Positions 5,162 to 56,896 are shown, numbered from the stretch's first letter. The stretch is 64,000 nt of DNA from Fidelibacterota bacterium (GCA_013203185.1 JABMOS010000118.1:23006-87005); one strand, 5' to 3'. Notes: generated by a model not told the origin, from the sequence alone. Numbers and translations: made by a program.

Positions 5162-5620
5162 TTAAAACTGAACATACCAGTCAGTCTGTTCGTTTATTTG
5201 TTTTTCTCGGATTACAATCCCCCGTGGTGCAGAGTTTTCAGGAATAACAATATAGTTTTGTATTTCCTGAAATAATTCTTCATTGGCCAGCAATTGAGCA
5301 GGGTCTAAGAGCAAGCCTATGACCATGAGTTGATACTCTCCTGCTTCCAATTGGACAAAATAATCCAAACTGGATGTACCTGGATTTATGGGGTCACCAT
5401 AGGTAATAAAATGGTCAATGACTTTATAGCCTGGTTCGTCTATTCGAGTAAAATCCAGGCTGTCATCAAATACAACAACCACCCCACCTTCAAGTGAGTC
5501 TGACCAACTGTTGAAGATCACTGTTCCCTCAACACCGGCGATGGCTTCCAGGCTTGCCGGTTTTTCACATGCAGTCATCGTCATGAGCGAAACAATGATA
5601 AAGGTTAAGCCAATACGCAT
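5162..5620 (-). CDS. Hypothetical lipoprotein, translationally coupled to the TonB-dependent receptor
   Basis: MRIGLTFIIVSLMTMTACEKP has a lipobox MTAC. Its start overlaps the receptor stop (TAATG at 5620). Confidence 0.55.
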   Translation of the reverse strand: MRIGLTFIIVSLMTMTACEKPASLEAIAGVEGTVIFNSWSDSLEGGVVVVFDDSLDFTRIDEPGYKVIDHFITYGDPINPGTSSLDYFVQLEAGEYQLMVIGLLLDPAQLLANEELFQEIQNYIVIPENSAPRGIVIREKQINEQTDWYVQF

Positions 5621-27349: not shown

Positions 27350-27531
27350 GGCGTCATTATGGTTGAGAAAAAAGCAAATTACAACCATTTATTATGGGGT
27401 TCTGTTTCTATAAAGATAATATTATCAATGATCGCCCCTTATTGTTTGTTAGCTTTATTTACTAACTTAAAATAAATATTTATTGGAGATTAAGACCAAT
27501 GAGAAAATTGTAATCTCCGGGATTCTTGGCT

Positions 27532-28212
27532 ATGTTAAACGATATGAGTGGAAAAATAAATACAGCTATCATTGTTGCAGCAGGGAGTGGCAGCAGATTG
27601 GCCAGCGACACGCCAAAACAATTTCTGAAATTGAAAGACGTGGAAATCCTGGCCTATTCTGTTCAGGCCTTCCTGGAGCATCCACAAATAGATGCAGTTA
27701 TTGTTGTCACTTCAGCGGATTATTTGGACCATGTGATCCGTCACTATCCAGACTGCAAAGTGGTGCCTGGAGGCGACACCCGACAAGATTCTGTCTTCAA
27801 TGGGCTGGAGGCCTGCTCGGCATCTACTGATAATGTATTGATTCATGATGCCGCCCGTCCCTTAATTCCTTCCTGGGTTATCGATTCATGTCTGTCCAGT
27901 CTGGAAACGTGTGATGGTGTTGCTCCTGCAATCACGCCTGCTGACTCAATGGTCCAGATTGAGGATTCGGGATTCAGAAACCTCAACCGAGACAGCCTGC
28001 GGATTGTCCAAACCCCACAATGCTTTCACTTGAATATTCTTAAAGCCGCCCATGCATCTGGAAAAGTTGATACTGATGAAATGGGCCTCGTAAAACAAAG
28101 TAATCCGCAAGCCCTCCTCGGTTTCATTGAAGGCGCACCAGAAACCATGAAAGTGACCAGACCCCTGGATCTGGAGATTATTAAGAATTATCTCGATGCA
28201 GCCGAGAAATAA
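27532..28212 (+). CDS. ispD: IspD/TarI-family cytidylyltransferase (2-C-methyl-D-erythritol 4-phosphate or polyol-phosphate cytidylyltransferase)
   Basis: AIIVAAGSGSRLASDTPKQFLKL, GGDTRQDSV, VLIHDAARP and VQTPQCF are IspD-family signatures. Possible starts are TTG 27526, ATG 27532 and ATG 27544. I cannot distinguish IspD from TarI by eye. Confidence 0.8.
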   Translation: MLNDMSGKINTAIIVAAGSGSRLASDTPKQFLKLKDVEILAYSVQAFLEHPQIDAVIVVTSADYLDHVIRHYPDCKVVPGGDTRQDSVFNGLEACSASTDNVLIHDAARPLIPSWVIDSCLSSLETCDGVAPAITPADSMVQIEDSGFRNLNRDSLRIVQTPQCFHLNILKAAHASGKVDTDEMGLVKQSNPQALLGFIEGAPETMKVTRPLDLEIIKNYLDAAEK

Positions 28213-28228
28213 GTAGCCAACACTCTTC

Positions 28229-29293
28229 ATGATGACACCGACCCTCGATTTAGTCTATTCAACGACCAAGGGATATGCCAGTCTACTCCCGCTTTTCTCA
28301 CACATGAAAACCCTGGGTTGGCAGGTGAGACTGGAGAAAGTCCATCGGAACTGTTTTCTGAATAGGCGACTGTTAAAATCGATCTCATCCATGATTGTTA
28401 TCGCATATGATAAACCCCTTGTCCGTCTGGAAAAATGTGGATGGGAAGGTGAGTTTATCTATATCGAGCATGGTCTCAGCCCCATGAAGTATTACACCTA
28501 CAAGTATGAATTCTTTCAGCGAGCTGCCCTCCTTTTTTATCCCGGCGAAGTCTTCAAACGCAAGATGGAAGCCATCAATCCTCAGTTTGTGCGTGGACTC
28601 CTGGGTGGCTATCCCAAGGTGGACGAACTGGTTAATTTGGAGATTAACAGAAATCAATTATGCTTGAGATACGGTTTAAATCCAGAAAAACCTGTCATTC
28701 TTTTTGCCCCCTCCTGGGGTGGCAAGAGGAACAAGAATTCTGGCATTCACAATGCCAAACACCTTTCCTCTCTGGAGAACCTGTTAATTGTTCCCCACTC
28801 CGCAGATTACTCCCTTGCCAAAAAATATGGAGCGGTAAAACCAGGAGATGGCAATATTAATCAGTTCCTCCATCTTGCCAATGTTGTGATTAGTGATATT
28901 TCCTCAGTACTTGCTGAAGCCTCTATTCTGGATAAGCCCGTAGTCCAACTCATCTTACCAGACTATCCAGGATGTTTTCCAGAGATCGAAAAACGGAAAT
29001 CAGGAACCTGGGTCTCTGAGGATGTCCTGGCTAAGGAGCAACGGACAGACCGTTCTAGCCGTCCGTTTAAAATCCCCTATATAGATGAAGACTGGATTAT
29101 GGGGCACACTGCTGAAGCTCAAGATCTGGAGGCAGCGATTCTGGATGCTCTTCAAAATCCTCACAAGTTCGCTGAGCAACGAAAATATTGGGCTGAGCAG
29201 AGCTGCTGGAAAGCTGATGGCAAATCATCAAGCCGGATCAGTCATATGATTGAGCAACTTTTAAAGGATGGTTCAATTACGCAGGTGGCGTAG
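28229..29293 (+). CDS. CDP-glycerol/ribitol glycerophosphotransferase-family protein (TagB/TagF-like)
   Basis: YIEHGLSPMKYY (cf. WHG...K), VILFAPSWGG (cf. ILYAPTWR), LIVPHS, and VISDISSVLAEASILDKPVV (cf. SDYSS...D...kPii). Starts 16 nt after ispD. Confidence 0.6.
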   Translation: MMTPTLDLVYSTTKGYASLLPLFSHMKTLGWQVRLEKVHRNCFLNRRLLKSISSMIVIAYDKPLVRLEKCGWEGEFIYIEHGLSPMKYYTYKYEFFQRAALLFYPGEVFKRKMEAINPQFVRGLLGGYPKVDELVNLEINRNQLCLRYGLNPEKPVILFAPSWGGKRNKNSGIHNAKHLSSLENLLIVPHSADYSLAKKYGAVKPGDGNINQFLHLANVVISDISSVLAEASILDKPVVQLILPDYPGCFPEIEKRKSGTWVSEDVLAKEQRTDRSSRPFKIPYIDEDWIMGHTAEAQDLEAAILDALQNPHKFAEQRKYWAEQSCWKADGKSSSRISHMIEQLLKDGSITQVA

Positions 29294-29420
29294 TAACCAC
29301 CAGTGAAACCTTGTCTTTACAATTTGCTTAATTATATAATCAGGTCCTGAAAATGTGTGATGGGAAATTCATATTGAGTGAAATTTAAATTTTAGGTTTA
29401 TGAAAAATTAAAGGTGTGAT

Positions 29421-30101
29421 GTGAGAGCAATAATTCTAGCAGCCGGTATAGGTTCCCGCCTTGGGAATCCTCGTCCCAAGCCTCTGACTAAACTTTCCAC
29501 AGGGGAAATGATTATGGGCAGACAGGTTGAATATCTGAAACAAGTTGTCTCGGTAGATGACATCTTTGTTGTGATTGGTTTTAAAAAAGACCTCATCATG
29601 GAAGAATTTTCAGAACTGACCTATGTGTTTAATAATGTCTATGACAGAACAAATACTTCAAAAAGCTTGCTGAAGGCCATGCGCAAAGTCAGGGCAGATG
29701 ATGTCATCTGGCTCAATGGTGATGTGGTATTTGATCCTGAAGTACTGGCTAGAGTAGTTGCTTCAAAAACGTCATGCATGGCAGTCAACACCTCGTCAGT
29801 GGCAGAAGAAGAGGTCAAATACACCCTGTCCACCGATGGTTCAATTAATGAAGTTTCAAAAACTGTACAAAATGCCCTTGGTGAGTCCGTAGGTATCAAT
29901 AAAATTATATCCAGTGATGTGCCACTCTTCATAGAGATGCTGGAACGTTGTGATGATAATGATTATTTTGAACGTGGCATCGAATTCGCCATCAATGCTG
30001 GTTTGAAAATTTATCCTGTTGATGTATCAGATGTCCTTTGCATTGAGGTTGACTTCACCGAAGACCTTGAAAAAGCCAACAATGAACTAGGAGAGGCGTG
30101 A
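29421..30101 (+). CDS. LicC-like sugar/alcohol-phosphate nucleotidyl(cytidylyl)transferase
   Basis: MRAIILAAGIGSRLG...PKPL is the N-terminal NTP-transferase signature. Overall collinearity with pneumococcal LicC as recalled. GTG start with AAGGTG upstream. Confidence 0.65.
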   Translation: MRAIILAAGIGSRLGNPRPKPLTKLSTGEMIMGRQVEYLKQVVSVDDIFVVIGFKKDLIMEEFSELTYVFNNVYDRTNTSKSLLKAMRKVRADDVIWLNGDVVFDPEVLARVVASKTSCMAVNTSSVAEEEVKYTLSTDGSINEVSKTVQNALGESVGINKIISSDVPLFIEMLERCDDNDYFERGIEFAINAGLKIYPVDVSDVLCIEVDFTEDLEKANNELGEA

Positions 30102-31183
30102 GCGATTCCTTTTCCAAAACGCTAAAGGTCTTCCAACAATCAAATTTACGCTATACGATGGGCGCTGAATCACTGGTTGGATTTGTGGAAGGTGATATAT
30201 ACAAGTACACCCACAACCTGCGCATCTACCTATTCCCCACTTCTGCCTTTCGACTTGTATTTCTGGCCCTTAAGCTATTAAAGTCAGGTGTTATTTTTAA
30301 ACCCAAATTTAGCCAGGGGCACCTTTATTATAAGCTGAGGTACAAACCGAGTCTCCTGGGTAAGGAATCGACTTTCATTTCCATCACGCCTCTGGAAGCC
30401 ACCAAGGGGGGGTTCGTTGCATTTTTAGGTGGGCATGACACGTTTTTTTCAATCGAAGACCTAAACGAATCCACCCTTAAGAAAATTGAGCTGAATGATC
30501 TCTCGATTATGGCTCCAGCAGCCTACACTAATTTTGAACAAAAATACCGCATGGAATTGATGTCCGGGTTTTACCAGAAACATGAGGTTCAGTTTGATTC
30601 TGAGTCTGAGAAAAAAGCTATCCGCTTCATGCATGAGAACGTGTCTGTAATGACTGAGGCTGGCATTGATTTTTGGATAGAAGGCGGCACCCTTCTCGGG
30701 GCCTTACGCGATAATAAACTAATTCCCTGGGATCATGATCTTGACTTTGGAATGAAGTACGAATCTGAAATCCAAATGAAGCGACTTATTCGAAAGTTAC
30801 GCCGCCATTTTAATGTGAGTGTGAGATCCTTTCCCAAGACCTCCAAAATCTGGCATCTGGGAAACTATCGAGTTCTAAAAATATTTCCACGCAAACACCT
30901 GTTCTTTAAGGAAGATTTGTGTCTAGATCTCTTTGTTTACTACAAGGGCACCCTGCCTGGCAAGGATGAGGTTGTCTACAAATATGTAGTCTGGGACAGA
31001 AATGCCTACCACCGCAAGGAATTCTTTGAAACCACAGATACTCTTAATTTTTATGGCGGTGAGGTGCCCATCCCTGCCAATGCAGAACAGTTTATCGAAG
31101 TCAAATATGGCAAGGATTGGCGAACACCTATTAAGGAATGGAATGTCGCCCTTGATGATGGATCCATTTACAAAGAAGATTAA
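30098..31183 (+). CDS. LicD/fukutin-family phosphotransferase (phosphocholine or polyol-phosphate transferase)
   Basis: FWIEGGTLLGALRDNKLIPWDHDLDFGM (LicD/FKRP core with DxD) and a C-terminal VPIPANAEQFIEVKYGKDWRTP. GTGA overlap with the LicC-like gene. The ~190-aa N-terminal region has no assignment. Confidence 0.75.
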   Translation: MSDSFSKTLKVFQQSNLRYTMGAESLVGFVEGDIYKYTHNLRIYLFPTSAFRLVFLALKLLKSGVIFKPKFSQGHLYYKLRYKPSLLGKESTFISITPLEATKGGFVAFLGGHDTFFSIEDLNESTLKKIELNDLSIMAPAAYTNFEQKYRMELMSGFYQKHEVQFDSESEKKAIRFMHENVSVMTEAGIDFWIEGGTLLGALRDNKLIPWDHDLDFGMKYESEIQMKRLIRKLRRHFNVSVRSFPKTSKIWHLGNYRVLKIFPRKHLFFKEDLCLDLFVYYKGTLPGKDEVVYKYVVWDRNAYHRKEFFETTDTLNFYGGEVPIPANAEQFIEVKYGKDWRTPIKEWNVALDDGSIYKED

Positions 31184-31186
31184 GAT

Positions 31187-31819
31187 ATGACTCATTTCAC
31201 TATTAAGGATCTTCCGCAAGAGTATCAGTTTCTAAAAGACTCCTCCATCCTCATCATTGGGAATGGACCCAGTGCCGCCAAGCATGAGATGGGCAGAGAG
31301 ATTGACAAGTTTGATCAGATCATCAGAATTAACAACTATGTCACCGATCACATGGAATCACGGGTTGGCTCGCGGACAGACATCTGGGTAAATGGTGCCA
31401 ATCAGGGCTTAAAAAAACGACTCACGTTACCCGAAAAGATATTGGTGATGATACCTCCTGTCGTGTTGAATCATAAGGGGGTAGCCATTCACCGCCGCAT
31501 TGAAAACCGACTTGGATCGAAAAATTATACGCTGCTGCCACTGGAAATCATGTCTGAGATGGAATCATCATGTGGGCTTGATCGACCAACAACAGGATTC
31601 TTTACCATATATTTCTTCTATTTATTAGGGCTTGATGTCACACTTCACGGTTTCGATTTCTTCGTCGGATCAACTGCTCACTATTTTGATAGTCCCCTCA
31701 AGCGGTGGCTCAAGGAGAAGGGAATTATCAAGAAGGCAGTCAAGCACGATGTGGTCGGTGAAAAAGTATTCATTGAGACCCTCATCCAGAAGGGAGGAGT
31801 AAAAGTTTTACATGCCTAG
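31187..31819 (+). CDS. GT29-like (eukaryote-type) sialyltransferase homologue
   Basis: Four motifs in GT29 order: L-like ILIIGNGPS...GREIDKFDQIIRINN...ESRVGSRTD; S-like PTTGFFTIYFFYLLGLDVTLHGFDFF; III-like HYFD; VS-like KHDVVGE (H-x4-E). Starts 3 nt after licD-like. No signal peptide or TM segment. Confidence 0.6.
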   Translation: MTHFTIKDLPQEYQFLKDSSILIIGNGPSAAKHEMGREIDKFDQIIRINNYVTDHMESRVGSRTDIWVNGANQGLKKRLTLPEKILVMIPPVVLNHKGVAIHRRIENRLGSKNYTLLPLEIMSEMESSCGLDRPTTGFFTIYFFYLLGLDVTLHGFDFFVGSTAHYFDSPLKRWLKEKGIIKKAVKHDVVGEKVFIETLIQKGGVKVLHA

Positions 31820-32701
31820 CTAACTTCGTTTCAAGGTGAGCAGTACCAGACCTGATAGCGTGATTGCTCCCCCGATTATCACATTCAATCCAACCAATTC
31901 ACCAAAGAATATATAGGCCAGAACCGAAGCCAGAACCGGTTCCCCAAAAGGCATAGAACCAACAATTGTTGGACGAAGATATTTGACGGCATAGCTCATA
32001 CTATTATGCCCAATGAGGGTTGGTAAAACAACCAGTCCAAACAGCCATTTTGTATCTGCCTGCTGAAAGCTTATGTCAATTCCCATACTGAAAATTATTA
32101 ACGCTAAGGTAAGGGCAGCGAATAAGTATAGCCAGCGTGTGTACATGATATTGGTAATTTCACTGCGCACACGTTGAGCAATGATAAGTACCACTGACAT
32201 GAAGGCAGAACTGGCCAGGGCATAGAAATTTCCTTTAGTAGCTTCTGAGCCCCATTCAAATCCAGTCCCCTGGACAATAACAGCACCTGCTATGGCCATC
32301 CAAAGGCCAAACAGTGCTCCCACAGGGAACTTGTGCTTCAACGCAAAGCGCTCATAGGCAAGGGTAAAGATGGGTGCCAGAGTGGCAAAGAGGGTGGCAC
32401 TTGCAATTGAGGTCGACTTGACAGCAGAATAGAAAAATGCAAAATGAAGGGCCAGGAAAATCCCGGCAACGATAATCGCAGGAAATTTGTTTTTTGCCAG
32501 TGGTGCCTGCCTCTTGATGGCCCCATGACTCCACAATAGAGTTGATGCTCCAGCCATGCGCCAAAATGCAATAGTTAGTGCAGCGAGCTCTGGAAGGAAC
32601 CGGGCAAGGGGAGCTCCAAAGCTGACCCCCAGAAGCCCAAATACAAGCATGACATAAATCCTGTTATTCATAGCTTTGAACATAATCGTGGTGAATGTCA
32701 T
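31820..32701 (-). CDS. EamA/DMT-superfamily transporter
   Basis: Ten hydrophobic segments in two EamA-like halves. The track start at 32809 is a TTG that would overlap the divergent neuA start; in-frame ATGs at 32701, 32683 and 32671 are more plausible. Confidence 0.75.
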   Translation of the reverse strand: MTFTTIMFKAMNNRIYVMLVFGLLGVSFGAPLARFLPELAALTIAFWRMAGASTLLWSHGAIKRQAPLAKNKFPAIIVAGIFLALHFAFFYSAVKSTSIASATLFATLAPIFTLAYERFALKHKFPVGALFGLWMAIAGAVIVQGTGFEWGSEATKGNFYALASSAFMSVVLIIAQRVRSEITNIMYTRWLYLFAALTLALIIFSMGIDISFQQADTKWLFGLVVLPTLIGHNSMSYAVKYLRPTIVGSMPFGEPVLASVLAYIFFGELVGLNVIIGGAITLSGLVLLTLKRS

Positions 32702-32802
32702 GGACACGTATTGATTAAGCTCCTGCCCTACAAATCTGATTCCACTGGGAGTGATTAAAAAATTGTGGGCTGTGATGGGCGTCTCTTCATATATATTGGG
32801 GG

Positions 32803-33486
32803 ATGTCAATTTTTTGTATTATTCCTGCTCGCGGTGGTTCCAAAGGGGTTCCACATAAAAACATAGCTCCATTTTTAGGACAGCCTTTGATCAGCCACAC
32901 CATCAAGTATGCTCTCGCATCCAAATTTGTTGATGGCGTCTTTGTTTCCACTGACGATGAGGAGATTTCTAAGATATCCACAAGTGATGGTGCACAGGTA
33001 ATTCCGAGACCAGCTGAGATCGCTGGTGATACTGCTACCACAGAGTCTGCTATTTCACATGCAATTGGATGGTGGCAAGAGCAGAACTTAACCCCGGATA
33101 TCATTGTTTTATTGCAGGCAACAAGTCCACTTCGGCCCACAGGCTCACTGGACGAGGCTCTGGATAAGTTTAAGGATGGGGGTTTCGACTCCTTACTTAG
33201 TATCTCGCCCACACATCGGTTTTTCTGGAGTGTAAATGGGAAAGTAGCACGCGCTGAATACGATTTTATGAACCGGCCTAGACGTCAGGATATGAACGAA
33301 GCTGACATCAGATATGTTGAGAATGGATCTGTTTACATTTTTTCATTGGACCATTTCCAGCGCACAGAGAATAGACTTGGTGGAAAGATCGGGTATACCA
33401 TTTTCCCCGAAGAATTCAGCCCGGAGATAGATATTCCAAGTGACTTTACTTTGCTGGAAGAGATTGCTGAAAATTTAATCAGGTAG
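32803..33486 (+). CDS. neuA: CMP-sialic acid (N-acylneuraminate/KDN) cytidylyltransferase
   Basis: IIPARGGSKGVPHKNI, LLQATSPLR, RPRRQD and VENGSVYIF. The last two strings also occur in animal CMAS as I recall it. Confidence 0.85.
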   Translation: MSIFCIIPARGGSKGVPHKNIAPFLGQPLISHTIKYALASKFVDGVFVSTDDEEISKISTSDGAQVIPRPAEIAGDTATTESAISHAIGWWQEQNLTPDIIVLLQATSPLRPTGSLDEALDKFKDGGFDSLLSISPTHRFFWSVNGKVARAEYDFMNRPRRQDMNEADIRYVENGSVYIFSLDHFQRTENRLGGKIGYTIFPEEFSPEIDIPSDFTLLEEIAENLIR

Positions 33487-33503
33487 ATCGCTTTACTTAA
33501 ATA

Positions 33504-34565
33504 TTGGAGGTTGCTTTGCCAACTTTACAACTAGGCTCACAAACCGTTGGTGAGAATGATCCAACCTACATTATCGCTGAGATAGGTATTAATCATCAGG
33601 GTGAAGTAGAGATTGCAAAAAAACTGATCAAAGAAGCTGCTCATGGTGGCGCAAATGCAGTAAAATTTCAAAAGCGCAGCATCAAGCGCATCTTGACCCA
33701 CGAAGGTCTTGAAATGCCCTACGATAATCGCAATTCATTTGGCAAGACCTACGGCGAACATAAAAAAGCCTTAGAGCTGTCTGAGTCCGATTATCAGGAA
33801 CTCATGAATTATGCCAGTGAGCATAATGTCGACTTTATTGCCTCAGGGTGGGATGAAGAGAGTATCGATTTTCTTGATGAATTGGGTGTACCATTTTTCA
33901 AAATGGCTTCAGCCGATCTAACCAACATACCCCTGCTTATTCATACTGCAAAAAAGAACAAGCCAATGATTCTTTCCACAGGGATGGCAAACATGGAAAT
34001 GGTAGAAACTGCTGTTAATGCTATCAAGCCATTTGACGTTCCCCTGTGTATTCTCCAATGCACATCAACATATCCATCAGTTTTTGAAGAGGTTAATCTC
34101 GGTGTTATTAACACTTTCAAGCAACATTTTCCACAAGCTGTTATTGGCTATTCAGGTCATGAATTAGGAATTGCCATCACTGAAGCAGCTGTGGCCCTTG
34201 GAGCAAAGATTGTGGAACGCCATTTCACATTAGATAGGACCATGAAGGGTGGGGACCATGCCGCATCTCTTGAACCAGGTGGTTTTTCAAAGCTGGTCCG
34301 AGATATAAGACATATCGAGGTCGCCATGGGTGGGCCGACTAAACAGATTCAAGCATCGGAAGCACCCATTTTCAAGAAGTTAGCTAAAAGCGTCGTTTCC
34401 CTGGTAGAGCTGTCTGCAGGCACTATTCTGACGAGGGATATGCTTACTACCAAGGGACCTGGAACCGGCATTTCACCTGCAAGAATGGATGAACTATTGG
34501 GAAAAATGGTGATTAATGATATTGCTGCCGATGTGGTACTCAAGGACGAAGACATCAACTGGTAA
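33504..34565 (+). CDS. neuB: Nonulosonic acid synthase of the NANS (9-phosphate) type: Neu5Ac-9-P/KDN-9-P synthase-like, with C-terminal SAF domain
   Basis: YIIAEIGINHQGE, FGKTYGEHKKALELS, PFFKMAS, LQCTSTYP, IGYSGHELGIAITEAAVALGAKIVERHFTLD and GGDHAASLEPG. Collinear with human NANS as recalled (GYSGHE rather than the GxSDH of NeuB). TTG start. Confidence 0.8.
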   Translation: MEVALPTLQLGSQTVGENDPTYIIAEIGINHQGEVEIAKKLIKEAAHGGANAVKFQKRSIKRILTHEGLEMPYDNRNSFGKTYGEHKKALELSESDYQELMNYASEHNVDFIASGWDEESIDFLDELGVPFFKMASADLTNIPLLIHTAKKNKPMILSTGMANMEMVETAVNAIKPFDVPLCILQCTSTYPSVFEEVNLGVINTFKQHFPQAVIGYSGHELGIAITEAAVALGAKIVERHFTLDRTMKGGDHAASLEPGGFSKLVRDIRHIEVAMGGPTKQIQASEAPIFKKLAKSVVSLVELSAGTILTRDMLTTKGPGTGISPARMDELLGKMVINDIAADVVLKDEDINW

Positions 34566-34577
34566 ACAGGAGAGCAA

Positions 34578-35075
34578 ATGATATCTGAAGAACTTCGGGC
34601 TAAAGCTCAAAAGATCAAATTGGTAATAACGGATATTGATGGTGTCTGGACAGATGCAAAAATCTATTACACAGAGCATGGCGAATTAATGAAAGCCTTC
34701 AGCTATTATGATGGCATGGGAACAGCCCTCTTAACCAAAGCCAACATTAGAACAGCCATCATAACCGGTGAAAATTCCAAGCCAGTGGCTCAACGAGCCA
34801 AGAAGCTGAAAATCGAAGATGTCTTCCTGGGGATAGATGATAAGCTGGAAGTTTTTGAGTCCCTTCTTGAGAAGTATCAGCTCTTACCCTCAGAAGTAGC
34901 CTACATTGGTGATGATTTGAATGACTACACCGTCATGCAGGTCGCAGGCCTTACTGCAGTCCCCTCAAGCACGCCAGCCTTTCACATTCTCAAACCCGAC
35001 ATTTTATTGAGCCGTGCAGGGGGTGATGGCGCCTTCCGCGAATTTGCCGATCTCATCATCGCATCGCAGCAATGA
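34578..35075 (+). CDS. HAD-IIIA C0-type phosphatase, KdsC family (KDO-8-P or KDN-9-P/Neu5Ac-9-P phosphatase)
   Basis: KLVITDIDGVWTD (motif I), ITGE, IGDDLND and GGDGAFREF. 165 aa with no cap domain. Starts 12 nt after the synthase; ATGA overlap with waaA. Confidence 0.8.
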   Translation: MISEELRAKAQKIKLVITDIDGVWTDAKIYYTEHGELMKAFSYYDGMGTALLTKANIRTAIITGENSKPVAQRAKKLKIEDVFLGIDDKLEVFESLLEKYQLLPSEVAYIGDDLNDYTVMQVAGLTAVPSSTPAFHILKPDILLSRAGGDGAFREFADLIIASQQ

Positions 35076-36343
35076 AAATACTTTTTTATTCTTTCTACAA
35101 TCTTCTTCTTTTAATAGCTATACCAGTCTTTTGGATCGGAGCTTTTTTTAATAGCAAACTTGGCGGCAGTTTTACTGGCCAGAAGGATATTACTTCAAGA
35201 GTTATACGTTTTAAGGATAAAGTTAATTCTAACCCCAAACCTATCATTTGGACTCATTCTGCCTCAGCAGGAGAGTTTGAGCAAATGCGTCCAGTTTTAT
35301 CACGGCTATCTAAAATGGATGTGTACATCTTCCAGACTTTCACTTCAGCTACAATCTATTACAAAGCCTCACAGAATAAGATTTTCCATGGTGTCTGCTT
35401 TTTACCCTGGGATCTATATTCTAGAGTGAATCGTTTCGTTACACTTCTCAAGCCCGACTTATTCATTAATACCAGACATGATATCTGGCCGAATCTCCAA
35501 CTTTCAGTCCAGCGCAATCAGATCAGAAATATTTTAATCAATGCAAACCTATATCAGGATTCGAAACGACTCCTCCCTCTCTTTCGTGGGATCAACTCGC
35601 TTGTATTTAATCAAATCAATCACATTTATACTGGATCATCTACTCTTGAATCCCTGCTCAAGCAAATCTATGCTGGTCCGATTGATGTGGTAGGTGACTC
35701 ACGGTTCGACCAAGTTCAGGAAAGAGCTCTCAGCAACACAGAAATGTTGATAACTGAGGATTTGCTTGCTGACCGACGGGTCGTTGTATATGGTTCCGTA
35801 GGTGATACAGATTTAAAAATTATCACAGCGGCTATTGCTCAGGCTAATACCAATAGGGCTTTCATGCATATTATCGTACCCCATGAAACTGCTGAACGGG
35901 ATCTCATTCCCTGGGAGGCTGAACTCTTTCGCCAAAAGGTAAAATCCATACGAAAATCTGAGATTGATCAGTTCAAAGATGAAACCGTCATGATTTGGGA
36001 TAGCGTGGGACAATTGGCCGACTTGTATAAATATGCTAATCTGGCATTTATTGGAGCAGGATTTGGTGCTGGAGTACACTCTGTTACAGAAGCAGCCATA
36101 TTCAATGTCCCCTGTTCACATGGCCCCAAATATGACATCCTCGCTGAAGCAATAGATTTGGTTAATGAAGGTCTCTCAACAGTGACAAATGAAGTTCCGG
36201 ACCTCATCAGCTTTTTAACCATGCCCGACACTAGCATCACCGAGCTCTCATTGAAAATTGAATCCTTTGTCAAGCATCGACTTGGAGCCACTGATAAAAT
36301 ATTTGAAAACGAACCCCTTCTGAGATCTTTTATTCCACGATAA
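35072..36343 (+). CDS. waaA: 3-deoxy-D-manno-octulosonic acid transferase family (GT30)
   Basis: N-terminal membrane-associated helix, PIIWTHSASAGEFEQMRPVLSRL (cf. WaaA SVSVGE), LPWDL, TRHDIWPNL and INANL, collinear with E. coli WaaA as recalled. Confidence 0.8.
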   Translation: MKILFYSFYNLLLLIAIPVFWIGAFFNSKLGGSFTGQKDITSRVIRFKDKVNSNPKPIIWTHSASAGEFEQMRPVLSRLSKMDVYIFQTFTSATIYYKASQNKIFHGVCFLPWDLYSRVNRFVTLLKPDLFINTRHDIWPNLQLSVQRNQIRNILINANLYQDSKRLLPLFRGINSLVFNQINHIYTGSSTLESLLKQIYAGPIDVVGDSRFDQVQERALSNTEMLITEDLLADRRVVVYGSVGDTDLKIITAAIAQANTNRAFMHIIVPHETAERDLIPWEAELFRQKVKSIRKSEIDQFKDETVMIWDSVGQLADLYKYANLAFIGAGFGAGVHSVTEAAIFNVPCSHGPKYDILAEAIDLVNEGLSTVTNEVPDLISFLTMPDTSITELSLKIESFVKHRLGATDKIFENEPLLRSFIPR

Positions 36344-37994
36344 AATCAAATAGTAACTCCTGGCCGAAATCTGGTGGGAAAGACAGCAGCGTATCTCCAG
36401 ACATCGATTCAAAGAGCACTAATCCATCCATCCCTACCTGGCTGGGTGCCGCGTTCCTGTTCCACCAATGTCGTGATATCCCATCTTCCATCTCATCACT
36501 GAATTTGAACTGATACATGCCCTTGGCTAAATCAACAGGTATTCTATAGTTTGTGCTGTCCTTAAAATCATCCATATAGTACCAGATCAACCCTGACATA
36601 TCACTAATATAGTATTTATTCTCTGCCGAACGCCCGAGGTTATTTGTTTGTATGGATAGAACAAACTTATGAGGAAAACTAACGGGCTTTTGAAAGTGTG
36701 AAGTTAAAGTATTGTTTTCAGGGTATTCATCAAGCATTGGTTTGGGAAGTACAAGATGCACCTGAAACCTTCCAGATTCCCTCATCTGTTTCCTACTCAA
36801 TGCTGGAAGAACGACTTCTTCGGATTCAAGGAACTCTAGATTGCCTTTCCAGTTAAATTTCTTCTTCCTATGTCCTGCAATTCCATAAGTAATATTCAAA
36901 TCCCTTATGGGATATGCTCCCTCATTTTTGATAATTATGATTGGATTACCACCACTGGGATTCATTCTTGAATATTGGTCTTTAGCGTTGGGTACAAGTA
37001 TCTGAACAACAGCAGCATTATAATTGAAATGTGGTGGGCCAAAGCTGAACAATTGGTGGCTCATCCTCAAGGTTCCATCCTTTTCCCCATTGTCCATAAA
37101 TGGTTCAATAGTATAGTCCAGAGTAATGGTGTCTCCAGGGGATACTTTTGGTGTCAGTTCAAACATGTATTCATCTACTTTTGTTCCTGGGCACCAACCA
37201 GCCCTATCAAATGCCCAGGTTCCACCTTGTGGATATATTGGATTATTCCCACAATCTTTCCATACATTCCATCTGTAGGTCTCCCAACTGTTTAAACGGT
37301 AGGTATGAGTCTTGCTATCCCATTCACAGCAATTGTATGGCCCTGCATGACCATGTCCTGATATAGTCGCTTTGAGACTGAAAGCTGCGGCCGCCTCAGA
37401 AAGTACAATCTGCCTTTCTTTTAATAAGCTATCTGTAGAAAGATATTCGTACTTATACTCCCCATAAGGATACACGTTTTCTACTGACAACACCTGTCTT
37501 GCAGGTGTTCCTCGAATAAACAGAAACTGCAGGTTTAGCAATTCTTGGTTATTGCCTGCAATTATATTACGAGCGCCCTTTAGGAGCGGCGCATACTCAG
37601 TTATATCATACACCCACTTCCAACCGCTCTCACCTCCAAGTTTTAATCGTTTCCCATATGGCGTGACAAAACTTCCAAGTGTGAATAGCTCTGTACTATC
37701 CCCCTGTGGAACTTCGATAAATATATTCCAAATGTAATCCCACTCACCACATGGGTATGCATCACCAGCAGTGGCAGTATCACATTTTAAGGTCTGAACC
37801 ATAAATATTTGCGACCACCTGCTATCATCATCAGGAAAGTTGACAACTGTTTTATACTGTGCATTCCACCCCAATGGGCTTGGTTCATCAAAAGTAATGG
37901 GGGTGAATTGTAAGGTGTCACCAGACCAGGATTGACTTAAGCAAACTGACAATGGTGACCCAGTAACTAGTATAAATAGCAATACTCGATACAT
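36330..37994 (-). CDS. Secreted PNGase F-like peptide-N-glycosidase (glycoamidase) with ~220-aa C-terminal extension
   Basis: Signal peptide MYRVLLFILVTGSPLSVCLSQ. Collinear with Elizabethkingia PNGase F as recalled: CGEWDY (CDEWDR), LGSFVTPYG (IGRFITPY), TISGHGHAG (TISGWGHA), CCEWD (CAEW) and AFDRAGWCPG (APDRAGWCPG). Confidence 0.7.
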   Translation of the reverse strand: MYRVLLFILVTGSPLSVCLSQSWSGDTLQFTPITFDEPSPLGWNAQYKTVVNFPDDDSRWSQIFMVQTLKCDTATAGDAYPCGEWDYIWNIFIEVPQGDSTELFTLGSFVTPYGKRLKLGGESGWKWVYDITEYAPLLKGARNIIAGNNQELLNLQFLFIRGTPARQVLSVENVYPYGEYKYEYLSTDSLLKERQIVLSEAAAAFSLKATISGHGHAGPYNCCEWDSKTHTYRLNSWETYRWNVWKDCGNNPIYPQGGTWAFDRAGWCPGTKVDEYMFELTPKVSPGDTITLDYTIEPFMDNGEKDGTLRMSHQLFSFGPPHFNYNAAVVQILVPNAKDQYSRMNPSGGNPIIIIKNEGAYPIRDLNITYGIAGHRKKKFNWKGNLEFLESEEVVLPALSRKQMRESGRFQVHLVLPKPMLDEYPENNTLTSHFQKPVSFPHKFVLSIQTNNLGRSAENKYYISDMSGLIWYYMDDFKDSTNYRIPVDLAKGMYQFKFSDEMEDGISRHWWNRNAAPSQVGMDGLVLFESMSGDTLLSFPPDFGQELLFDFIVE

Positions 37995-40191: not shown

Positions 40192-41463
40192 TTAGGCAGT
40201 TTTGCGGCCTGAGGAACGTCCTCGTTTAGGTCGACCACCTCCACCGGCGTTTGAAGGTTTGGATTTTTTCCGAAGCCCATAAGGCACTGCTGCATCTTTA
40301 GCTGTTACTTCTGGCTTATAATTCACAAAGGGATGTTCTGACACAATCTTAATTTTCTGTTTGATCAATTTTTCGATATCCCGGAGAAATGCCTTTTCCT
40401 CGTCATCGCAAAAGGATATGGCCATACCACTCAAGCCAGCTCTTCCTGTTCGTCCGATGCGGTGGACATAAGTCTCAGAAATATTGGGAAGGTCATAGTT
40501 AACCACATGAGACAATTCATCAATATCTATACCACGGGCGGCAATGTCAGTTGCAACCAGAACTTTTGTCGCCCCATTTTTAAAATTTCCCAATGCCCTT
40601 TGACGAGCGGTTTGTGATTTATTGCTGTGAATAGCTTCAGCTGAAATACCAGCTCGATCCAATAGTTTGACAATTTTATTGGCGCCATGTTTTGTTCGAG
40701 AAAACACCAGGACAGATTCCATGGGCATGGTTTGTAATAAATGAATGAGCAGTTTTGTTTTACCTGGTTTATTGACATAATAAACAGCTTGTTCAACTTT
40801 TTCCGCCGTTGTTTGATCTGGTGTTACAGAAACTTTCTCAGGATTCCCAAGAATCTTCCGTGATAAGGCCACAATATCTGGAGGCATCGTCGCGGAGAAA
40901 AATAAGGATTGGCGCTTTGGTGGCAATAGAGCTATGAGTTTTTTAATATCATGAATGAACCCCATATCCAACATTCTGTCTGCCTCGTCCAGAACTGAGT
41001 ATTCCACATCCTTCAAACTTATGAATCCCTGGCCGATGAGATCCAGGAGGCGTCCTGGCGTTGCAACCAAAACATCGATACCTCTTTCAAGGATTTTCGT
41101 CTGGGCGCCCTGTTTTACACCGCCAAAAATGACCGTATTTTTAATGCCAGTATGCTGTCCATAGACACTGAAACTTTCACCGATCTGTATGGCCAGCTCT
41201 CGAGTAGGGGTAACAATAAGGGCCTTAATTTTCCGTCGACCTCTTTGGTCTTGGCGATTTTGCAGCTTCAGATAAAGATGTTGCAGAATGGGGATGGCGA
41301 AGGCAGCTGTTTTTCCAGTGCCCGTCTGAGCGCAGCCCAGTAGATCCTTACCCTGCAAGAGAATAGGAATGGACTGCTCTTGGATGGGGGTTGGATTTGT
41401 ATAGCCCTCGGCACTCAATGCCCTGAGAATAGGGTCAATAACCCCAAGCTGTTGAAAGGTCAT
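40192..41463 (-). CDS. rhlE: DEAD-box ATP-dependent RNA helicase, RhlE-like
   Basis: Q-motif region, [21 protein letters not shown] and [10 protein letters not shown]. Basic Gly/Arg C-terminal tail. Confidence 0.9.
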
Positions 41464-41472
41464 ACTAGTCTA

Positions 41473-43305
41473 TCACTTCTTGTTACTTCGGCGCGGACTA
41501 ATTCCGCTCTTTTTACTTCTGCTACCACGTCTTCCACTCTTAGTGATTCCATATTCTTTTTGCTTGGAGAATTTTTTGTTCTTGGTTGGCAGCGGGGTAG
41601 GTTTATCGGTAGAAACCTCAAGTTGAACTTTGACGCCTTCATGTTCCCGACCATGTAATTTTTCAACCAGTGTGTTCACCACGCCCTGTTCAATATCGAA
41701 GAAGGCAAACTTCTTCATTATTTCTATAGCACCTACATCAGCTTCATTGGAGTTTAAAGTTTTATTTATTAATCCAATCAAACGAGTTGGCGTTAAATCA
41801 TTTTTCATACCCAGATTAATAAACAATCTGGTGAAAGTTTTATGGTGGGGACCTTGCTCTTTCCGACTATCCACCCTGTCGCCGCGTTTGTTACTATCTC
41901 GTCTGCTGGCTGGATTGTCGCCGTGCTTGTTTCTATCTCTTCGACCAGGACGTTCCCCACGTTCCGGTTTGTCGTCGGCCGAAACATTGATATCTGTAGC
42001 ATGCTTGTAGTAGGCCAGGAAGCGATTGAATTCTGCTGATACGAAATGCTTAATAAGTTCCTCTCGGCTCAACCATTCCAGCTTTTCATAGATGGCTGGC
42101 ATGAAGGGTCCAATCTGCTTTTCGTCAACATCAACTTTTTCAATTTTATCAATCAAAGAGTATAGCTGTTTGGTACAAATATCTTTTCCAGTGGGAACCA
42201 GTTCCTTTGTGAATTTTACCTTAAATTTACTTTCGATGGATCTGATTTTTCCAAACTCACGGGTATGAATGATGGCAATAGAAATACCACTCTTTCCAGC
42301 CCTGCCAGTTCTACCGCTTCGATGGATATACACTTCTGAATCATCAGGTAGATTGTAGTTTATCACATGGGTAAGATCGTTAATATCCAAGCCGCGGGCA
42401 GCAACATCAGTTGCTACTAAAATTTGGATTTTTTTGGTTCGGAATCTTTTCATCACTTCATCGCGTTGAGCCTGGGACAATTCACCATGCAAGGCATCTG
42501 CATTGTACCCATCATGCATAAACTTGTGCGCTGTATCTTTTGTCTCTTGTCTGGTGCGACAAAAGACCAGCCCATAAATGCTTGGATTTGAATCTGCGAT
42601 TCGCTTTAGAACTTCATATCTATTCTTGGCCTGAACCATATAGTAAATGTGCTTAACGTTTACAGCGCCAGTATTCATTTTTGAAGCAGCGATCTCAATG
42701 GGATTGTCCATGTAAGTTTTGGTCATTCGCTGTACTTCTTTTGACATGGTGGCTGAGAACAAAAGTGTTTGCTTGGTGGCTGAAGTTTCTGCCAAGATGG
42801 CATCCAGGTCTTCCTTGAAGCCCATATTAAGCATCTCATCAGCTTCATCTAAAATCACTCGTTCAACATTCCCAAGGAGCAATTTTCTTCGCTTAATTAA
42901 GTCTTTGGCTCGACCTGGTGTGGCCACTACGATTTGAGCAGCTTTTCTCAGTGCCTTCATCTGTGTATCAATAGGAGCACCACCATAAACTGGGACGACG
43001 CCTATTTCTTTGATGTATTTAGCATAATTATTCAGATCCTTGGAAATCTGGATACAGAGTTCCCTGGTCGGGCAAAGGATGAGTGTCTGTGTTCTTTTGT
43101 CTTCAGGTTTTGTGAGATGTACAGCCGGCAAACCAAAAGCTCCAGTTTTTCCTGTCCCCGTCTGGGCAAAAGCTACCAAATCCTGAGTTGAGGTTAACAA
43201 GTGTGGTATTGTCTGTTCCTGAATAGGGGTTGGTTCTTCAAAACCCAGTTCTTGAATGGCCTTAACAATATCATCATATAGGCCGAGTTGAGCGAAAGCA
43301 TTCAT
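41473..43305 (-). CDS. deaD: DEAD-box ATP-dependent RNA helicase, DeaD/CsdA-like with C-terminal DbpA-type RNA-binding domain and basic tail
   Basis: [21 protein letters not shown] and HRSGRTGRAG. The C-terminal FTRLFINLGMKNDLTPTRLIGLI is DbpA/DeaD-C-like. The track start at 43323 is TTG; ATG at 43305 is preferred. Confidence 0.88.
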   Translation of the reverse strand: MNAFAQLGLYDDIVKAIQELGFEEPTPIQEQTIPHLLTSTQDLVAFAQTGTGKTGAFGLPAVHLTKPEDKRTQTLILCPTRELCIQISKDLNNYAKYIKEIGVVPVYGGAPIDTQMKALRKAAQIVVATPGRAKDLIKRRKLLLGNVERVILDEADEMLNMGFKEDLDAILAETSATKQTLLFSATMSKEVQRMTKTYMDNPIEIAASKMNTGAVNVKHIYYMVQAKNRYEVLKRIADSNPSIYGLVFCRTRQETKDTAHKFMHDGYNADALHGELSQAQRDEVMKRFRTKKIQILVATDVAARGLDINDLTHVINYNLPDDSEVYIHRSGRTGRAGKSGISIAIIHTREFGKIRSIESKFKVKFTKELVPTGKDICTKQLYSLIDKIEKVDVDEKQIGPFMPAIYEKLEWLSREELIKHFVSAEFNRFLAYYKHATDINVSADDKPERGERPGRRDRNKHGDNPASRRDSNKRGDRVDSRKEQGPHHKTFTRLFINLGMKNDLTPTRLIGLINKTLNSNEADVGAIEIMKKFAFFDIEQGVVNTLVEKLHGREHEGVKVQLEVSTDKPTPLPTKNKKFSKQKEYGITKSGRRGSRSKKSGISPRRSNKK

Positions 43306-43577
43306 TTTAATAGTTTGATCCAATTAATATTTAGTATGTTGTTATTTTCATTTCGTTTAGTATAAACGAGTTCAACCCTTCAACTAACCATATCTGAAAA
43401 TGAGGCCAAATCAGCATTTTTGAACTTGAATGGCGACAGGTAAGGCATATAGCCAATCTACATACCCTAAAAAGCCCACAATGAACTCTAAATGATTGAA
43501 ATTTGGGGAAAGATGCTCAACCTCAATGATCAAAATCAGGGAGCGATACAGATTTAGAGGTCTTATTTTTCCACTAC

Positions 43578-55316: not shown

Positions 55317-55482
55317 CGCCATTTTCAAACCCTGCACGGGTTCAATCTTTTCTGATTCACAGGATTGAACTTCAAGCAATAATTATTAAATTTACCTCCT
55401 GATCAGCTAACCCAGTTTCAGTAGTTACAATCATTCGGTGTTACCAGCACCAAAATCCACTTATCTATATTGGGAGAATACC

Positions 55483-56166
55483 ATGAATGCAAAAGCTGTT
55501 TCAAGTTCAGGTCATCGAGAGAGATTGAGAGAACGTTTTTTTCAAAATGGAATCGAATCATTCCACGATTATGAGGTTCTGGAGCTCCTCCTAACCCTGG
55601 CAACCCCCCGAAAAGACATGAAACCCCAGGCCAAGGAATTGATTAGACGTTTTGGAAATCTGGCAGGAGCACTGGAGGCTCCCACTTCAGTGCTTCTGGA
55701 TATTAAGGGGATGGGACAAGCAAATGTTTTTGCCCTAAAACTTCCCCATGCCGTGGGCCGGAGGTATTTATTTGAAAAAACCCAGGGCAAAGATTATCTC
55801 AGATCCAGCAAAACGGTTAAGGATTACCTCACCCACAATTTGCGTGAAAGAAATCGCGAGGTGTTTATGGTTATTTTTCTAGACGGTCAAAATCAGATCA
55901 TCAAAATGGAAGAACTCTTTACTGGGTCGCTCACTACTTCAGCTATCTATCCCAGAGAGGTCATCCAGAAAGTTTTGAGTTATGATGCCGCCAGTGTCAT
56001 TCTGGTTCATAATCACCCATCTGGGTCGCTCACACCTTCAGGGAGTGATCGGGCTGTGACAAAAAAACTGAAAGTAGCCCTGGCTTCCATTGACGTGGAA
56101 ATTCTGGATCATCTGATTGTCGGTGGGAATGAATTTTTCTCATTCGCTGATCATCGGCTTTTATAG
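55483..56166 (+). CDS. radC: RadC-family JAB/JAMM domain protein (UPF0758)
   Basis: N-terminal GHRERLRERF...YEVLELLL (HhH region) and an intact JAMM motif VHNHPSGSLTPSGSD. ATG at 55483 with GGGAGA upstream. Confidence 0.88.
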   Translation: MNAKAVSSSGHRERLRERFFQNGIESFHDYEVLELLLTLATPRKDMKPQAKELIRRFGNLAGALEAPTSVLLDIKGMGQANVFALKLPHAVGRRYLFEKTQGKDYLRSSKTVKDYLTHNLRERNREVFMVIFLDGQNQIIKMEELFTGSLTTSAIYPREVIQKVLSYDAASVILVHNHPSGSLTPSGSDRAVTKKLKVALASIDVEILDHLIVGGNEFFSFADHRLL

Positions 56167-56347
56167 TACCCAGGATATAATTTCAGCCTTTTAATTAAAA
56201 ATTGAAGTATATCCGATGTGATGTTCGGTATTGCATCTTATTATTTTATAAATACCTACGACACTACAAAACAACAATTTATATTGATAATTATTATTTG
56301 TGATATATATTATCATATTAAACTTCAAAAACGAACGGGGAAATTGT

Positions 56348-56896
56348 TTGAGAAATATTTATTTAATGCTATTGGTGGTAGGTTTATCGTCCTGTGGTTT
56401 ATCCCCTAAGGCAGATCCTGATTCGCACCACGCTTCAAGGAGAGCTCACTCAAATAAATACATCGTCGAGGAAGCCCATGTTACGGGAAGCCGTAACCTC
56501 TTTATTCAACCAGATGGCATGAATTGTCTTAATTCCAGTAAAGCGGTGCTGGAATACATTAATTTGCATCACCATGAACGCAATCAGGATGCTGTTTTAA
56601 TTTTTCTTCTCGACGATTCAAACCTGATTTTAAATGTAGATGAATTGGGACCAAAAGTTCTTTCCATGCCATCAGTATACACATCCGAGGTGACACAAAA
56701 GGCCACGGAACATAAGGCCGCTTCAGTAATTTTAGTCCAATGTCTCCCCACACGAACATCCACACCTTATAAGAATGACCGTGAGATTTCAAAAAAATTA
56801 AAGCTAGCCCTGGAAACAATCAATGTTGACCTATTAGATCATATCATCATGGGTCGGAATCAGTGTTTTTCATTTGCAGACAATCAACTGCTATAA
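56348..56896 (+). CDS. RadC-like paralogue with degenerate JAMM site and lipoprotein-type signal peptide
   Basis: The C-terminal 100 aa align with the upstream RadC (ASVILV, KKLK.AL..I.V..LDH.I.G.N..FSFAD..LL), but HNHPSG..S..D reads QCLPTR..Y..D. The N-terminus (M)RNIYLMLLVVGLSSCG has a lipobox if TTG 56348 (or ATG 56366) is the start. Confidence 0.6.
   Translation: MRNIYLMLLVVGLSSCGLSPKADPDSHHASRRAHSNKYIVEEAHVTGSRNLFIQPDGMNCLNSSKAVLEYINLHHHERNQDAVLIFLLDDSNLILNVDELGPKVLSMPSVYTSEVTQKATEHKAASVILVQCLPTRTSTPYKNDREISKKLKLALETINVDLLDHIIMGRNQCFSFADNQLL

Follow-up and report, generated by a model that had tools for sequence, protein, structure and literature searches.

Which nine-carbon sugar does a short gene cluster of a marine bacterium make, by which route, and onto what could the sugar be transferred? 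The cluster lies in a 64 kb stretch of a Candidatus Marinimicrobia (Neomarinimicrobiota) metagenome-assembled genome (MAG), the whole of which we refer to as the window. An earlier note on this DNA had proposed that positions 32803-35075 encode an animal-type 9-phosphate route to a nonulosonic acid, possibly ketodeoxynonulosonic acid (Kdn). Our analysis argues that positions 32803-36343 are very likely one operon whose first three genes form a module for making cytidine monophosphate-activated Kdn (CMP-Kdn) through a phosphorylated intermediate, and that the route is probably the Kdn-9-phosphate (Kdn-9-P) route of the Bacteroides thetaiotaomicron type. The NeuA, synthase, phosphatase, GT30 and GT29 proteins discussed below are each identical to an NCBI protein from a MAG of this phylum; proteins of the source MAG include NQV42688-NQV42691. 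The four genes of the proposed operon are as follows.

32803-33486, + strand: NeuA, a CMP-sialic acid synthetase family protein of 227 amino acids (PF02348), predicted CMP-Kdn synthetase
33516-34565, + strand (mechanical open reading frame from 33504): NANS-type synthase of 349 amino acids (PF03102 plus SAF), predicted Kdn-9-P synthase
34578-35075, + strand: C0 HAD phosphatase without a cap, YrbI/8KDOP subfamily, 165 amino acids (NF058599, TIGR01670), predicted Kdn-9-P phosphatase
35072-36343, + strand: GT30 WaaA-like glycosyltransferase of 423 amino acids (PF04413), candidate CMP-ulosonate transferase

Open reading frame (ORF) calling, Pfam and motif searches recovered NeuA, the NeuB-family synthase and the C0 HAD protein between 32803 and 35075, along with every motif quoted in the earlier note, and placed neuA, the synthase, the HAD gene and the 423-residue GT30 gene in that order on the + strand. 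The family matches, listed below, lie far outside what chance would give. Exactly 12 nucleotides, acaggagagcaa, lie between the stop of the synthase and the ATG of the HAD gene, the spacing that the note had reported; they include a Shine-Dalgarno-like AGGAG. The phosphatase stop overlaps the GT30 ATG as ATGA. Synthesis of the synthase most likely begins at the TTG at 33516, with a GGAGG 5 nucleotides upstream; this start gives a product of 349 residues, as in all public homologues, and residue numbers for the synthase refer to this product. The Kdn pathway of B. thetaiotaomicron, reportedly described by Wang et al. in 2008, comprises the Kdn-9-P synthase BT1714 and the Kdn-9-P phosphatase BT1713, with a cytidylyltransferase gene adjacent. 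In that locus a cytidylyltransferase gene comes first, then the synthase and then the phosphatase, as in the window, which bears out the resemblance that the earlier note had drawn.

Is the synthase of a kind that acts on a 6-phosphosugar? It matches the NeuB family (PF03102, 1.9e-80) and a C-terminal SAF domain (PF08666, 7.2e-07), and carries FGKTYGEHKKALELS at residue 75, IGYSGHELGIAI at 210 and DHAASLEPG at 247. It shares 51-52% identity with fish NANS, 37% with BT1714, whose sequence was recovered from gut-metagenome contigs with a 100% identical BT1713, and 35-36% with the Kdn-9-P synthetase of Prymnesium. Identity to six classical enzymes (Neisseria meningitidis NeuB, two NeuC-linked NeuBs, a Sinorhizobium meliloti homologue and two PseI) is 30-32%. 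Phylogenetic placement, for which the earlier note had called, was by neighbour-joining (NJ) only, with 89 sequences and 200 bootstraps. A split between a NANS-like group and the classical NeuB/PseI enzymes received 99% support, and animal NANS, BT1714 and the Prymnesium enzyme fall on the window synthase's side of it; the clade of the window synthase itself has 96.5% support and that of BT1714 99.5%. Use of a 6-phosphosugar has been established biochemically for the animal NANS and BT1714 lineages. The Prymnesium synthase accepts mannose-6-phosphate (Man-6-P) only, and not arabinose-5-phosphate (Ara-5-P) (PMC6200933).

Individual alignment columns agree with this grouping. An extended β2-α2 loop, KFQKR...NSFGxTYGEH, is present in the window synthase, fish NANS and BT1714, with a variant, NSYGDTYGAH, in the Prymnesium enzyme; it is absent from the six classical sequences, whose loop is shorter. 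At the column of N. meningitidis Glu134 the window synthase and the phosphosugar enzymes have Asp (Ser in the Prymnesium enzyme), and N. meningitidis Arg314 is lost both in the phosphosugar enzymes and in the window synthase, which has Gly. All 27 members of the window synthase's clade carry this Asp and Gly, and all six classical enzymes retain E134, SDH and R314. The change E134D and the loss of Arg314 are traits of eukaryotic and archaeal synthases (PMC8208679), and passages of the same paper cite Cotton 2014 for the view that the β2-α2 loop favours phosphosugar binding in human NANS. Judged from these alignments, the NSFGxTYGEH loop, E134D and the loss of Arg314 appear to be the informative features of the synthase. 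The SGH and ERH of the window synthase align with the metal-binding pair His215 and His236 of the N. meningitidis enzyme. The earlier note had instead pointed to a missing GxSDH motif. The window synthase does lack G.SDH and has GYSGH, but the characterised Kdn-9-P synthase BT1714 carries GFSDH, so the missing motif is not diagnostic and we reject it as a criterion.

The 165-residue HAD protein has DIDGVWTD at residue 19, in which the nucleophile motif DIDGV spans residues 19-23, and GDGAFREF at 149, and it aligns without gaps to BT1713 (PDB 3e81) over residues 11-161. Its key residues are Asp19/Asp21, Glu65, Arg73 and Lys76, and the last three occupy the columns of BT1713 Glu56, Arg64 and Lys67, whereas column 56 holds Arg, and column 67 Thr or Glu, in Escherichia coli KdsC and Aquifex 2p9j. 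Lu et al. are said to have found in 2009 that Glu56 and Lys67 separate Kdn-9-P phosphatases (KDN9PP) from phosphatases for the 8-phosphate of the eight-carbon sugar ketodeoxyoctonate (Kdo; KDO8PP), with Arg64 also binding the sugar. The residue comparison that the earlier note had advised finds, by these markers, the KDN9PP set and not the KDO8PP set. Nearly every HAD protein encoded beside a NANS-like synthase in the loci compared has the same Glu...Arg...Lys pattern, the exceptions being few, distant and poorly aligned. Among NCBIfam models the highest score was that of the Kdn-9-P phosphatase (NF058599), which speaks for this assignment although its cut-off was narrowly missed; that of the YrbI subfamily (TIGR01670) was passed with 156.8 bits at a cut-off of 107, and the KdsC equivalog (NF007019) failed with 150.6 bits against 208.

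NeuA matches CTP_transf_3 (PF02348, 1.3e-24). ARGGSKG, its CTP loop, is at residue 9, with RPRRQD following at 158 and ENGSVY at 173, and its nearest solved relatives are, in order, Vibrio cholerae CMAS (6ifd), Prymnesium PpNeuA (9t4z) and mouse CMAS (1qwj); the likeness to CMAS that the note had read from the last two motifs is thus sustained. According to a structural study of 2026, Arg196 of PpNeuA is a gatekeeper for Kdn, the column having Arg in organisms that make Kdn only and a hydrophobic residue in enzymes for N-acetylneuraminic acid (Neu5Ac); PpNeuA turns over Kdn with a kcat of 4.7 s-1 and Neu5Ac with 0.007 s-1, and the R196L substitution turns its preference from Kdn to Neu5Ac (PMC12934254). 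Window NeuA has Arg191 (NRLGGK) in this column, as do 25 of 25 orthologues in the clade. Elsewhere the column holds Phe, in V. cholerae CMAS and a NeuC-linked Alistipes NeuA, or Ile, in the NeuC-associated locus L057. A Leu, a Gln (QATSP) and a Tyr of window NeuA align with PpNeuA positions 109, 110 and 183, which are conserved residues of the sialic acid site.

Are the genes for a rival sugar precursor present? Pfam annotation of 56 of the 59 window ORFs of at least 150 amino acids (two of the other three are nested in larger opposite-strand ORFs) turned up neither a UDP-GlcNAc 2-epimerase nor a sugar kinase, a DegT-type aminotransferase, KdsA or KdsD. Using as tblastn query the NeuC of an Alistipes NeuA-NeuB-NeuC locus, we found no match in the window or in about 30 orthologous loci; the same query did match the distant L057, the one locus with NeuC. 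Families of N-acetylmannosamine (ManNAc) kinase and NanE were likewise not listed in the related loci whose Pfam annotations were read. The note's statement that the window holds no NeuC, ManNAc kinase or aminotransferase gene accordingly survives, and so does its preference for a 9-phosphate route that probably leads to Kdn: the tree and columns of the synthase, the phosphatase markers, Arg191 of NeuA and the absence of NeuC together point to Kdn as the likeliest product. Routes to pseudaminic or legionaminic acid, which need no phosphatase, were considered and dropped, there being no Pse or Leg genes and the synthase being far from PseI.

From this combination we infer the substrates, the product and the acceptor. 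The synthase would condense phosphoenolpyruvate with mannose-6-phosphate to give Kdn-9-P, and the C0 HAD phosphatase would strip the 9-phosphate to leave Kdn. The CMAS-type NeuA would then join Kdn and cytidine triphosphate into CMP-Kdn, with Arg191 selecting the C5 hydroxyl over an N-acetyl group. CMP-Kdn would be used by a glycosyltransferase of the same locus, either the translationally coupled GT30 protein, a GT29 protein encoded upstream, or both, and the product would most likely be an outer-membrane glycolipid of the lipopolysaccharide (LPS) type or another surface glycoconjugate.

How far does this gene order extend? A scan of species-representative genomes gave 80 loci, to which context look-ups added more. 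Loci with a synthase at least 62% identical to that of the window all belong to the Fibrobacterota-Chlorobiota-Bacteroidota (FCB) group or neighbouring lineages (Marinimicrobia, Fidelibacterota, Cloacimonadota, Chitinispirillum, Eisenbacteria, one Flavobacteriaceae MAG and MAGs labelled Lentisphaeria), and keep the order NeuA-synthase-HAD-GT30. In 27 of the 31 related loci compared, nothing intervenes between the synthase, HAD and GT30 genes, and GT30 comes directly after HAD at a gap of -23 to +37 nucleotides, commonly the 4-nucleotide ATGA overlap. Farther away, beside NANS-like synthases of Bacteroidota, Archaea, the candidate phyla radiation and Chloroflexota, the HAD gene is often kept and GT30 never is.

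Some of these loci show variations of their own. In L172 and L173 a gene for a 626-678-residue 'Sulfatase' (EptA/LtaS-like; 4357-6393) stands between NeuA and the synthase, and the NeuA-synthase spacing of these two loci recurs in L008, L020, L023, L025 and L164; the inserted gene suggests a phospho-substituent on the same glycoconjugate. Six Chloroflexota loci (L046, L047, L049, L056, L069 and L070) encode a NeuA-C0 HAD fusion of about 390-460 amino acids with the Arg gatekeeper present, which is the architecture of animal CMAS, and a NANS-like synthase with an extra C-terminal domain of about 280 amino acids. In Bacteroidota loci L059, L073, L074, L076 and L082 a BT1714-type synthase is fused to an N-terminal domain of about 255 amino acids that looks, by eye, like the SpsF type; in B. 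thetaiotaomicron the SpsF-like-looking and synthase parts are separate adjacent genes (4120-4869 and 4869-5908 in L085). A frameshift splits BT1714 in the gut-metagenome locus L086 (4869-5908), which is probably an assembly error because BT1714 is intact in L085, L088 and L092.

Which enzyme would use CMP-Kdn? The transferase step is the weakest link of the proposal. The earlier note overlooked two candidates, the GT30 gene that overlaps the phosphatase stop and a GT29 gene upstream of neuA. Upstream from neuA lie an EamA transporter gene on the opposite strand and then the GT29, LicD, LicC-like, TagF-like and IspD-like genes.

31820-32809, - strand: EamA/DMT-family transporter, divergent from neuA (PF00892, 1.4e-25)
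31187-31819, + strand: GT29 sialyltransferase-like protein, minimal, 210 amino acids (PF00777), candidate Kdn transferase
27526-31183, + strand: accessory decoration genes (IspD/TarI-like cytidylyltransferase, TagF-like glycerophosphotransferase, LicC-like nucleotidyltransferase, LicD-family phosphotransferase; Pfam)

The GT29 protein matches PF00777 at 1.6e-15. Its residues GNGPS...RINN, TTG...GFDFF, HYFD and H187...E192 do not vary among 41 members of the family; we take them to be sialylmotifs L, S, III and VS. Its AlphaFold2 model has a mean pLDDT of 88.2, and the top 30 Foldseek matches in the PDB are all mammalian GT29 enzymes (E 5e-9 to 3e-5, TM-score 0.54-0.64), so that the protein is predicted to adopt the GT-A variant 2 fold known from GT29 structures. 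It has no hydrophobic N-terminus, membrane anchor or stem, and no Cys at the motif L/S positions. A GT29 gene lies within 8-10 kb in about half of the related loci, and in many of them it co-occurs with the IspD/TarI-TagF-LicC-LicD genes; in L166 a nos (nitrous oxide reductase) cluster is found between that block and the NeuA operon. The EamA transporter has 290-295 residues in public gene calls, and its gene keeps the same place only in the closest Marinimicrobia loci.

The GT30 protein (PF04413, 5.1e-29) has a hydrophobic N-terminus and is matched by Aquifex WaaA (2xci) at 4.6e-14, with HSASAGEF over HTASIGEF and the S-x-G-E motif kept. In 11 loci that lack GT29, the 25 most frequent of 99 Pfam families include no known sialyltransferase family, and GT30 is present in 11 of 11, which makes it the most constant candidate user of CMP-Kdn. 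We tentatively raise the possibility that GT30 depends on CMP-Kdn and works on lipid A or the innermost core, so that Marinimicrobia and other FCB-group phyla would have an LPS with Kdn in place of Kdo or right next to it. Were that so, and we hold it to be possible rather than probable, the operon would correspond, for a nine-carbon sugar, to KdsA-KdsC-KdsB-WaaA. We found no paper that links CMP-Kdn with GT30, and no description of a GT30 enzyme transferring Kdn or of such an LPS.

The strongest competitor, to which we give not quite an even chance, is that GT30 is a housekeeping WaaA that transfers Kdo made by kdsA and kdsB products encoded elsewhere, that Kdn is added later by GT29 or another glycosyltransferase, and that the linkage reflects the clustering of LPS-core genes. 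Such a reading touches the transferase step only and is compatible with the Kdn pathway. It accounts for the match of GT30 to WaaA models over nearly its full length and for the retained S-x-G-E, and it fits the surroundings of related operons: four loci (L015, L017, L172 and L173) abut a fused lpxC/fabZ, and in L172 and L173 this fused gene is one of a cluster of lpxA, lpxC/fabZ, lpxD, skp and bamA, beside which the operon begins with an MsbA-like ABC gene. The presence of GT29 in about half of the loci would supply the later step, and marine bacteria with GT29 have LPS cores in which neuraminic acid is attached to Kdo (PMC5811610). However, the other half of the loci lack GT29, and the 11 of these noted above all have GT30. 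The overlap or near-abutment of the HAD stop and GT30 start holds across several phyla. The protein also stays far below the cut-off of every WaaA equivalog model (at most 117 bits against 363-617), all of which it fails, and NCBI names it 'hypothetical protein'. The operon probably serves assembly of an LPS-type glycolipid.

Several observations weigh against Kdn as the product. The top NCBIfam model for the phosphatase is KDN-9-PPhBT (NF058599), which scores 167.3 bits and falls just short of its cut-off of 180, and overall similarity is about as high to KdsC-type proteins as to the Kdn enzyme (116 bits to BT1713, 114 to E. coli KdsC and 131 to Aquifex 2p9j). The KDN9PP markers reportedly set out in 2009 were compared at the level of sequence. 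BT1713 reportedly also hydrolyses Neu5Ac-9-phosphate, according to the same authors as the 2009 work, so the phosphatase cannot separate Kdn from Neu5Ac. The column of human NANS Met42, where M42T is said by Hao in 2006 to kill the Kdn-9-P synthase activity, holds Glu in the window synthase and is uninformative. Human NANS takes both Man-6-P and ManNAc-6-phosphate (ManNAc-6-P) as substrates (PMC6200933). The gatekeeper rule of NeuA is not absolute, since rainbow trout CMAS has Leu at the gate and yet prefers Kdn (PMC12934254). Finally, with the genome seen only for 64 kb, a source of ManNAc-6-P could lie elsewhere.

These points bear chiefly on the idea that the same enzymes make CMP-Neu5Ac by the animal route, fed with ManNAc-6-P from elsewhere, either by nanE acting on GlcNAc-6-P or by neuC plus a kinase. 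The main substrate of vertebrate NANS, to which the synthase is 51-52% identical, is ManNAc-6-P, and some bacterial NANS-like synthases are linked to NeuC. One is that of L057. Another is P0245, a bacterial protein of 1146 amino acids named 'UDP-N-acetylglucosamine 2-epimerase' at NCBI, whose NANS-like synthase domain shares 49% identity with fish NANS; the protein combines early and late steps of sialic acid synthesis in a GNE-like fusion. The limited view of the genome leaves room for such a source. We nevertheless consider CMP-Neu5Ac improbable: the Arg gatekeeper stands in all 25 NeuA orthologues, and its replacement by Leu inverts the preference of PpNeuA; NeuC is in none of the roughly 30 orthologous loci, and the annotations read there list no ManNAc kinase or NanE. 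We therefore keep Kdn as the favoured product.

It is very unlikely that the phosphatase is a KdsC paired with WaaA, and the synthase a classical NeuB working on a free sugar with no 9-phosphate route. Such an arrangement would explain why the gene adjoins a WaaA-like one, why the best PDB sequence match, Aquifex 2p9j, has residues of the KDO8PP type, and why the Joint Genome Institute (JGI) calls cluster members KDO 8-P phosphatase. But the marker residues of the window protein are the KDN9PP set, the synthase lacks Arg314 and Glu134 and groups with phosphosugar users at 99%, and in Archaea and Bacteroidota a HAD gene comes after the synthase even in loci without GT30; going by the residues, the KDO 8-P phosphatase label appears to be wrong. 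Scarcely credible is a non-orthologous Kdo pathway in which the NeuB-family synthase stands in for KdsA and makes Kdo-8-P from Ara-5-P, for although the operon parallels KdsA-KdsC-KdsB-WaaA step by step and Pfam finds neither KdsA nor KdsD in the window, the related Prymnesium enzyme rejects Ara-5-P (PMC6200933), NeuA is of the CMAS type with weak scores on KdsB models, and its Arg gate is a trait of nine-carbon Kdn enzymes.

Other genes of the window deserve mention. A 554-residue protein with a PNGase F C-terminal domain (36330-37994, - strand) converges on the end of the GT30 gene, and its gene is found at this place in a number of Marinimicrobia loci (L004-L006 and L008, at 57-73% identity, and L164). 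A domain of the glycan-releasing type here stands beside a glycan-building operon. Two neighbouring DEAD-box helicase genes, the second with a DbpA RNA-binding domain, lie at 40192-43323 (- strand), and just downstream of this pair the twin contig L001 has a Pyr_excise gene resembling T4 endonuclease V. Two RadC-like JAB-domain genes stand in tandem at 55438-56166 and 56300-56896 (both +), and a homologue of arylamine N-acetyltransferase (PF00797; 23652-24461, + strand) is followed by a DUF4416 gene.

Why does the assignment matter? To our knowledge the Kdn-9-P route has been demonstrated biochemically in bacteria for B. thetaiotaomicron only, and apart from the KDO 8-P phosphatase label these genes carry generic names in public annotation ('N-acetylneuraminate synthase family', 'HAD hydrolase-like', 'hypothetical protein'). 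A conserved Kdn operon allows a surface sugar to be predicted for a major phylum of abundant, uncultured ocean bacteria, and supplies a compact enzyme set for CMP-Kdn synthesis. It also brings forward two candidate Kdn transferases, one from GT29, best known from eukaryotes and with bacterial members that are functionally uncharacterised, and one from GT30, the family of Kdo transferases. If GT30 does move Kdn to lipid A or the core, the textbook view of Kdo as the universal lipid A-proximal sugar would change. The locus bears too on the origin of the eukaryotic sialylation toolkit, although the phylogeny presented here does not settle that origin.

How, then, does the system compare with known ones? 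With B. thetaiotaomicron the window shares a cytidylyltransferase, a 6-phosphosugar NeuB-family synthase and a C0 HAD phosphatase in the same order, the β2-α2 loop, E134D and loss of Arg314 in the synthase, and the Glu/Arg/Lys signature of the phosphatase. The synthases are only 37% identical and fall in separate, well-supported clades, with GFSDH in BT1714 and GYSGH in the window. The cytidylyltransferases differ as well: that of B. thetaiotaomicron resembles the N-terminal domain of the fused Bacteroidota synthases, SpsF-like by eye, and this domain found no tblastn match with window NeuA at 1e-5. The Bacteroides genes belong to a locus of the capsule type that includes a flippase and glycosyltransferases but neither GT30 nor GT29.

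The animal pathway (NANS, NANP, CMAS and Golgi GT29) resembles the window in a synthase 51-52% identical, a CMAS-like NeuA and a transferase of the GT29 fold. It differs in that the window has no GNE, that Kdn and not Neu5Ac is predicted, and that the window GT29 protein has 210 amino acids and neither anchor nor stem. The earlier note's term 'animal-type' therefore suits the synthase and NeuA and fails for the phosphatase, which is of the bacterial C0 YrbI type, like BT1713, and not NANP. The window synthase is approximately as close to fish NANS as arthropod NANS are, and in a set of 1.84 billion proteins the representatives outside animals that come closest to fish NANS are similar to the window's clade; P0226, for example, shares 53% identity with fish NANS and 60% with the window synthase. 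Fish NANS is sister to the window clade with 71.5% support in the 89-taxon NJ tree, but backbone support is at most 25% with 214 taxa, and we dropped the FCB clade as the sister of animal NANS because that backbone is unresolved.

Prymnesium parvum shares a phosphosugar-type synthase and the NeuA Arg gatekeeper (PpNeuA Arg196, window Arg191). Its synthase is 35-36% identical and without an SAF domain, PpNeuA has a C-terminal membrane anchor, and no phosphatase homologue was found in this organism (PMC6200933). The classical NeuC-NeuB-NeuA and PseI/LegI systems have in common with the window the NeuB TIM-barrel plus SAF and activation by CTP_transf_3, and differ in the 30-32% identity, the retained E134, SDH and R314, the shorter loop, linkage to NeuC or Pse genes and the lack of a phosphatase. 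The Kdo pathway shares a KdsC-subfamily phosphatase, GT30, the same cytidylyltransferase superfamily and, in related loci, lipid A genes nearby, whereas the window has a NeuB-type synthase, not one of the KdsA/DAHP-synthase type, KDN9PP residues and a CMAS-type NeuA.

Like the bacterial GT29 proteins described by Petit et al. 2018 (PMC5811610), that of the window is short and anchor-less, keeping the L, S, III and VS sialylmotifs and lacking the conserved cysteines. Proteobacteria account for almost all of the 23 published sequences, Alphaproteobacteria for 19, and the sequences come with no gene context or function (PMC5811610); here GT29 occurs in MAGs of Marinimicrobia and of other FCB-group lineages, where it is linked to a predicted Kdn operon. 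The pathway itself is known, from B. thetaiotaomicron and Prymnesium. What is new is its predicted occurrence in Marinimicrobia and allied phyla, with a distinct synthase clade and a conserved GT30-linked operon, and its coupling to a WaaA-like GT30, often to GT29, and to lipid A neighbourhoods.

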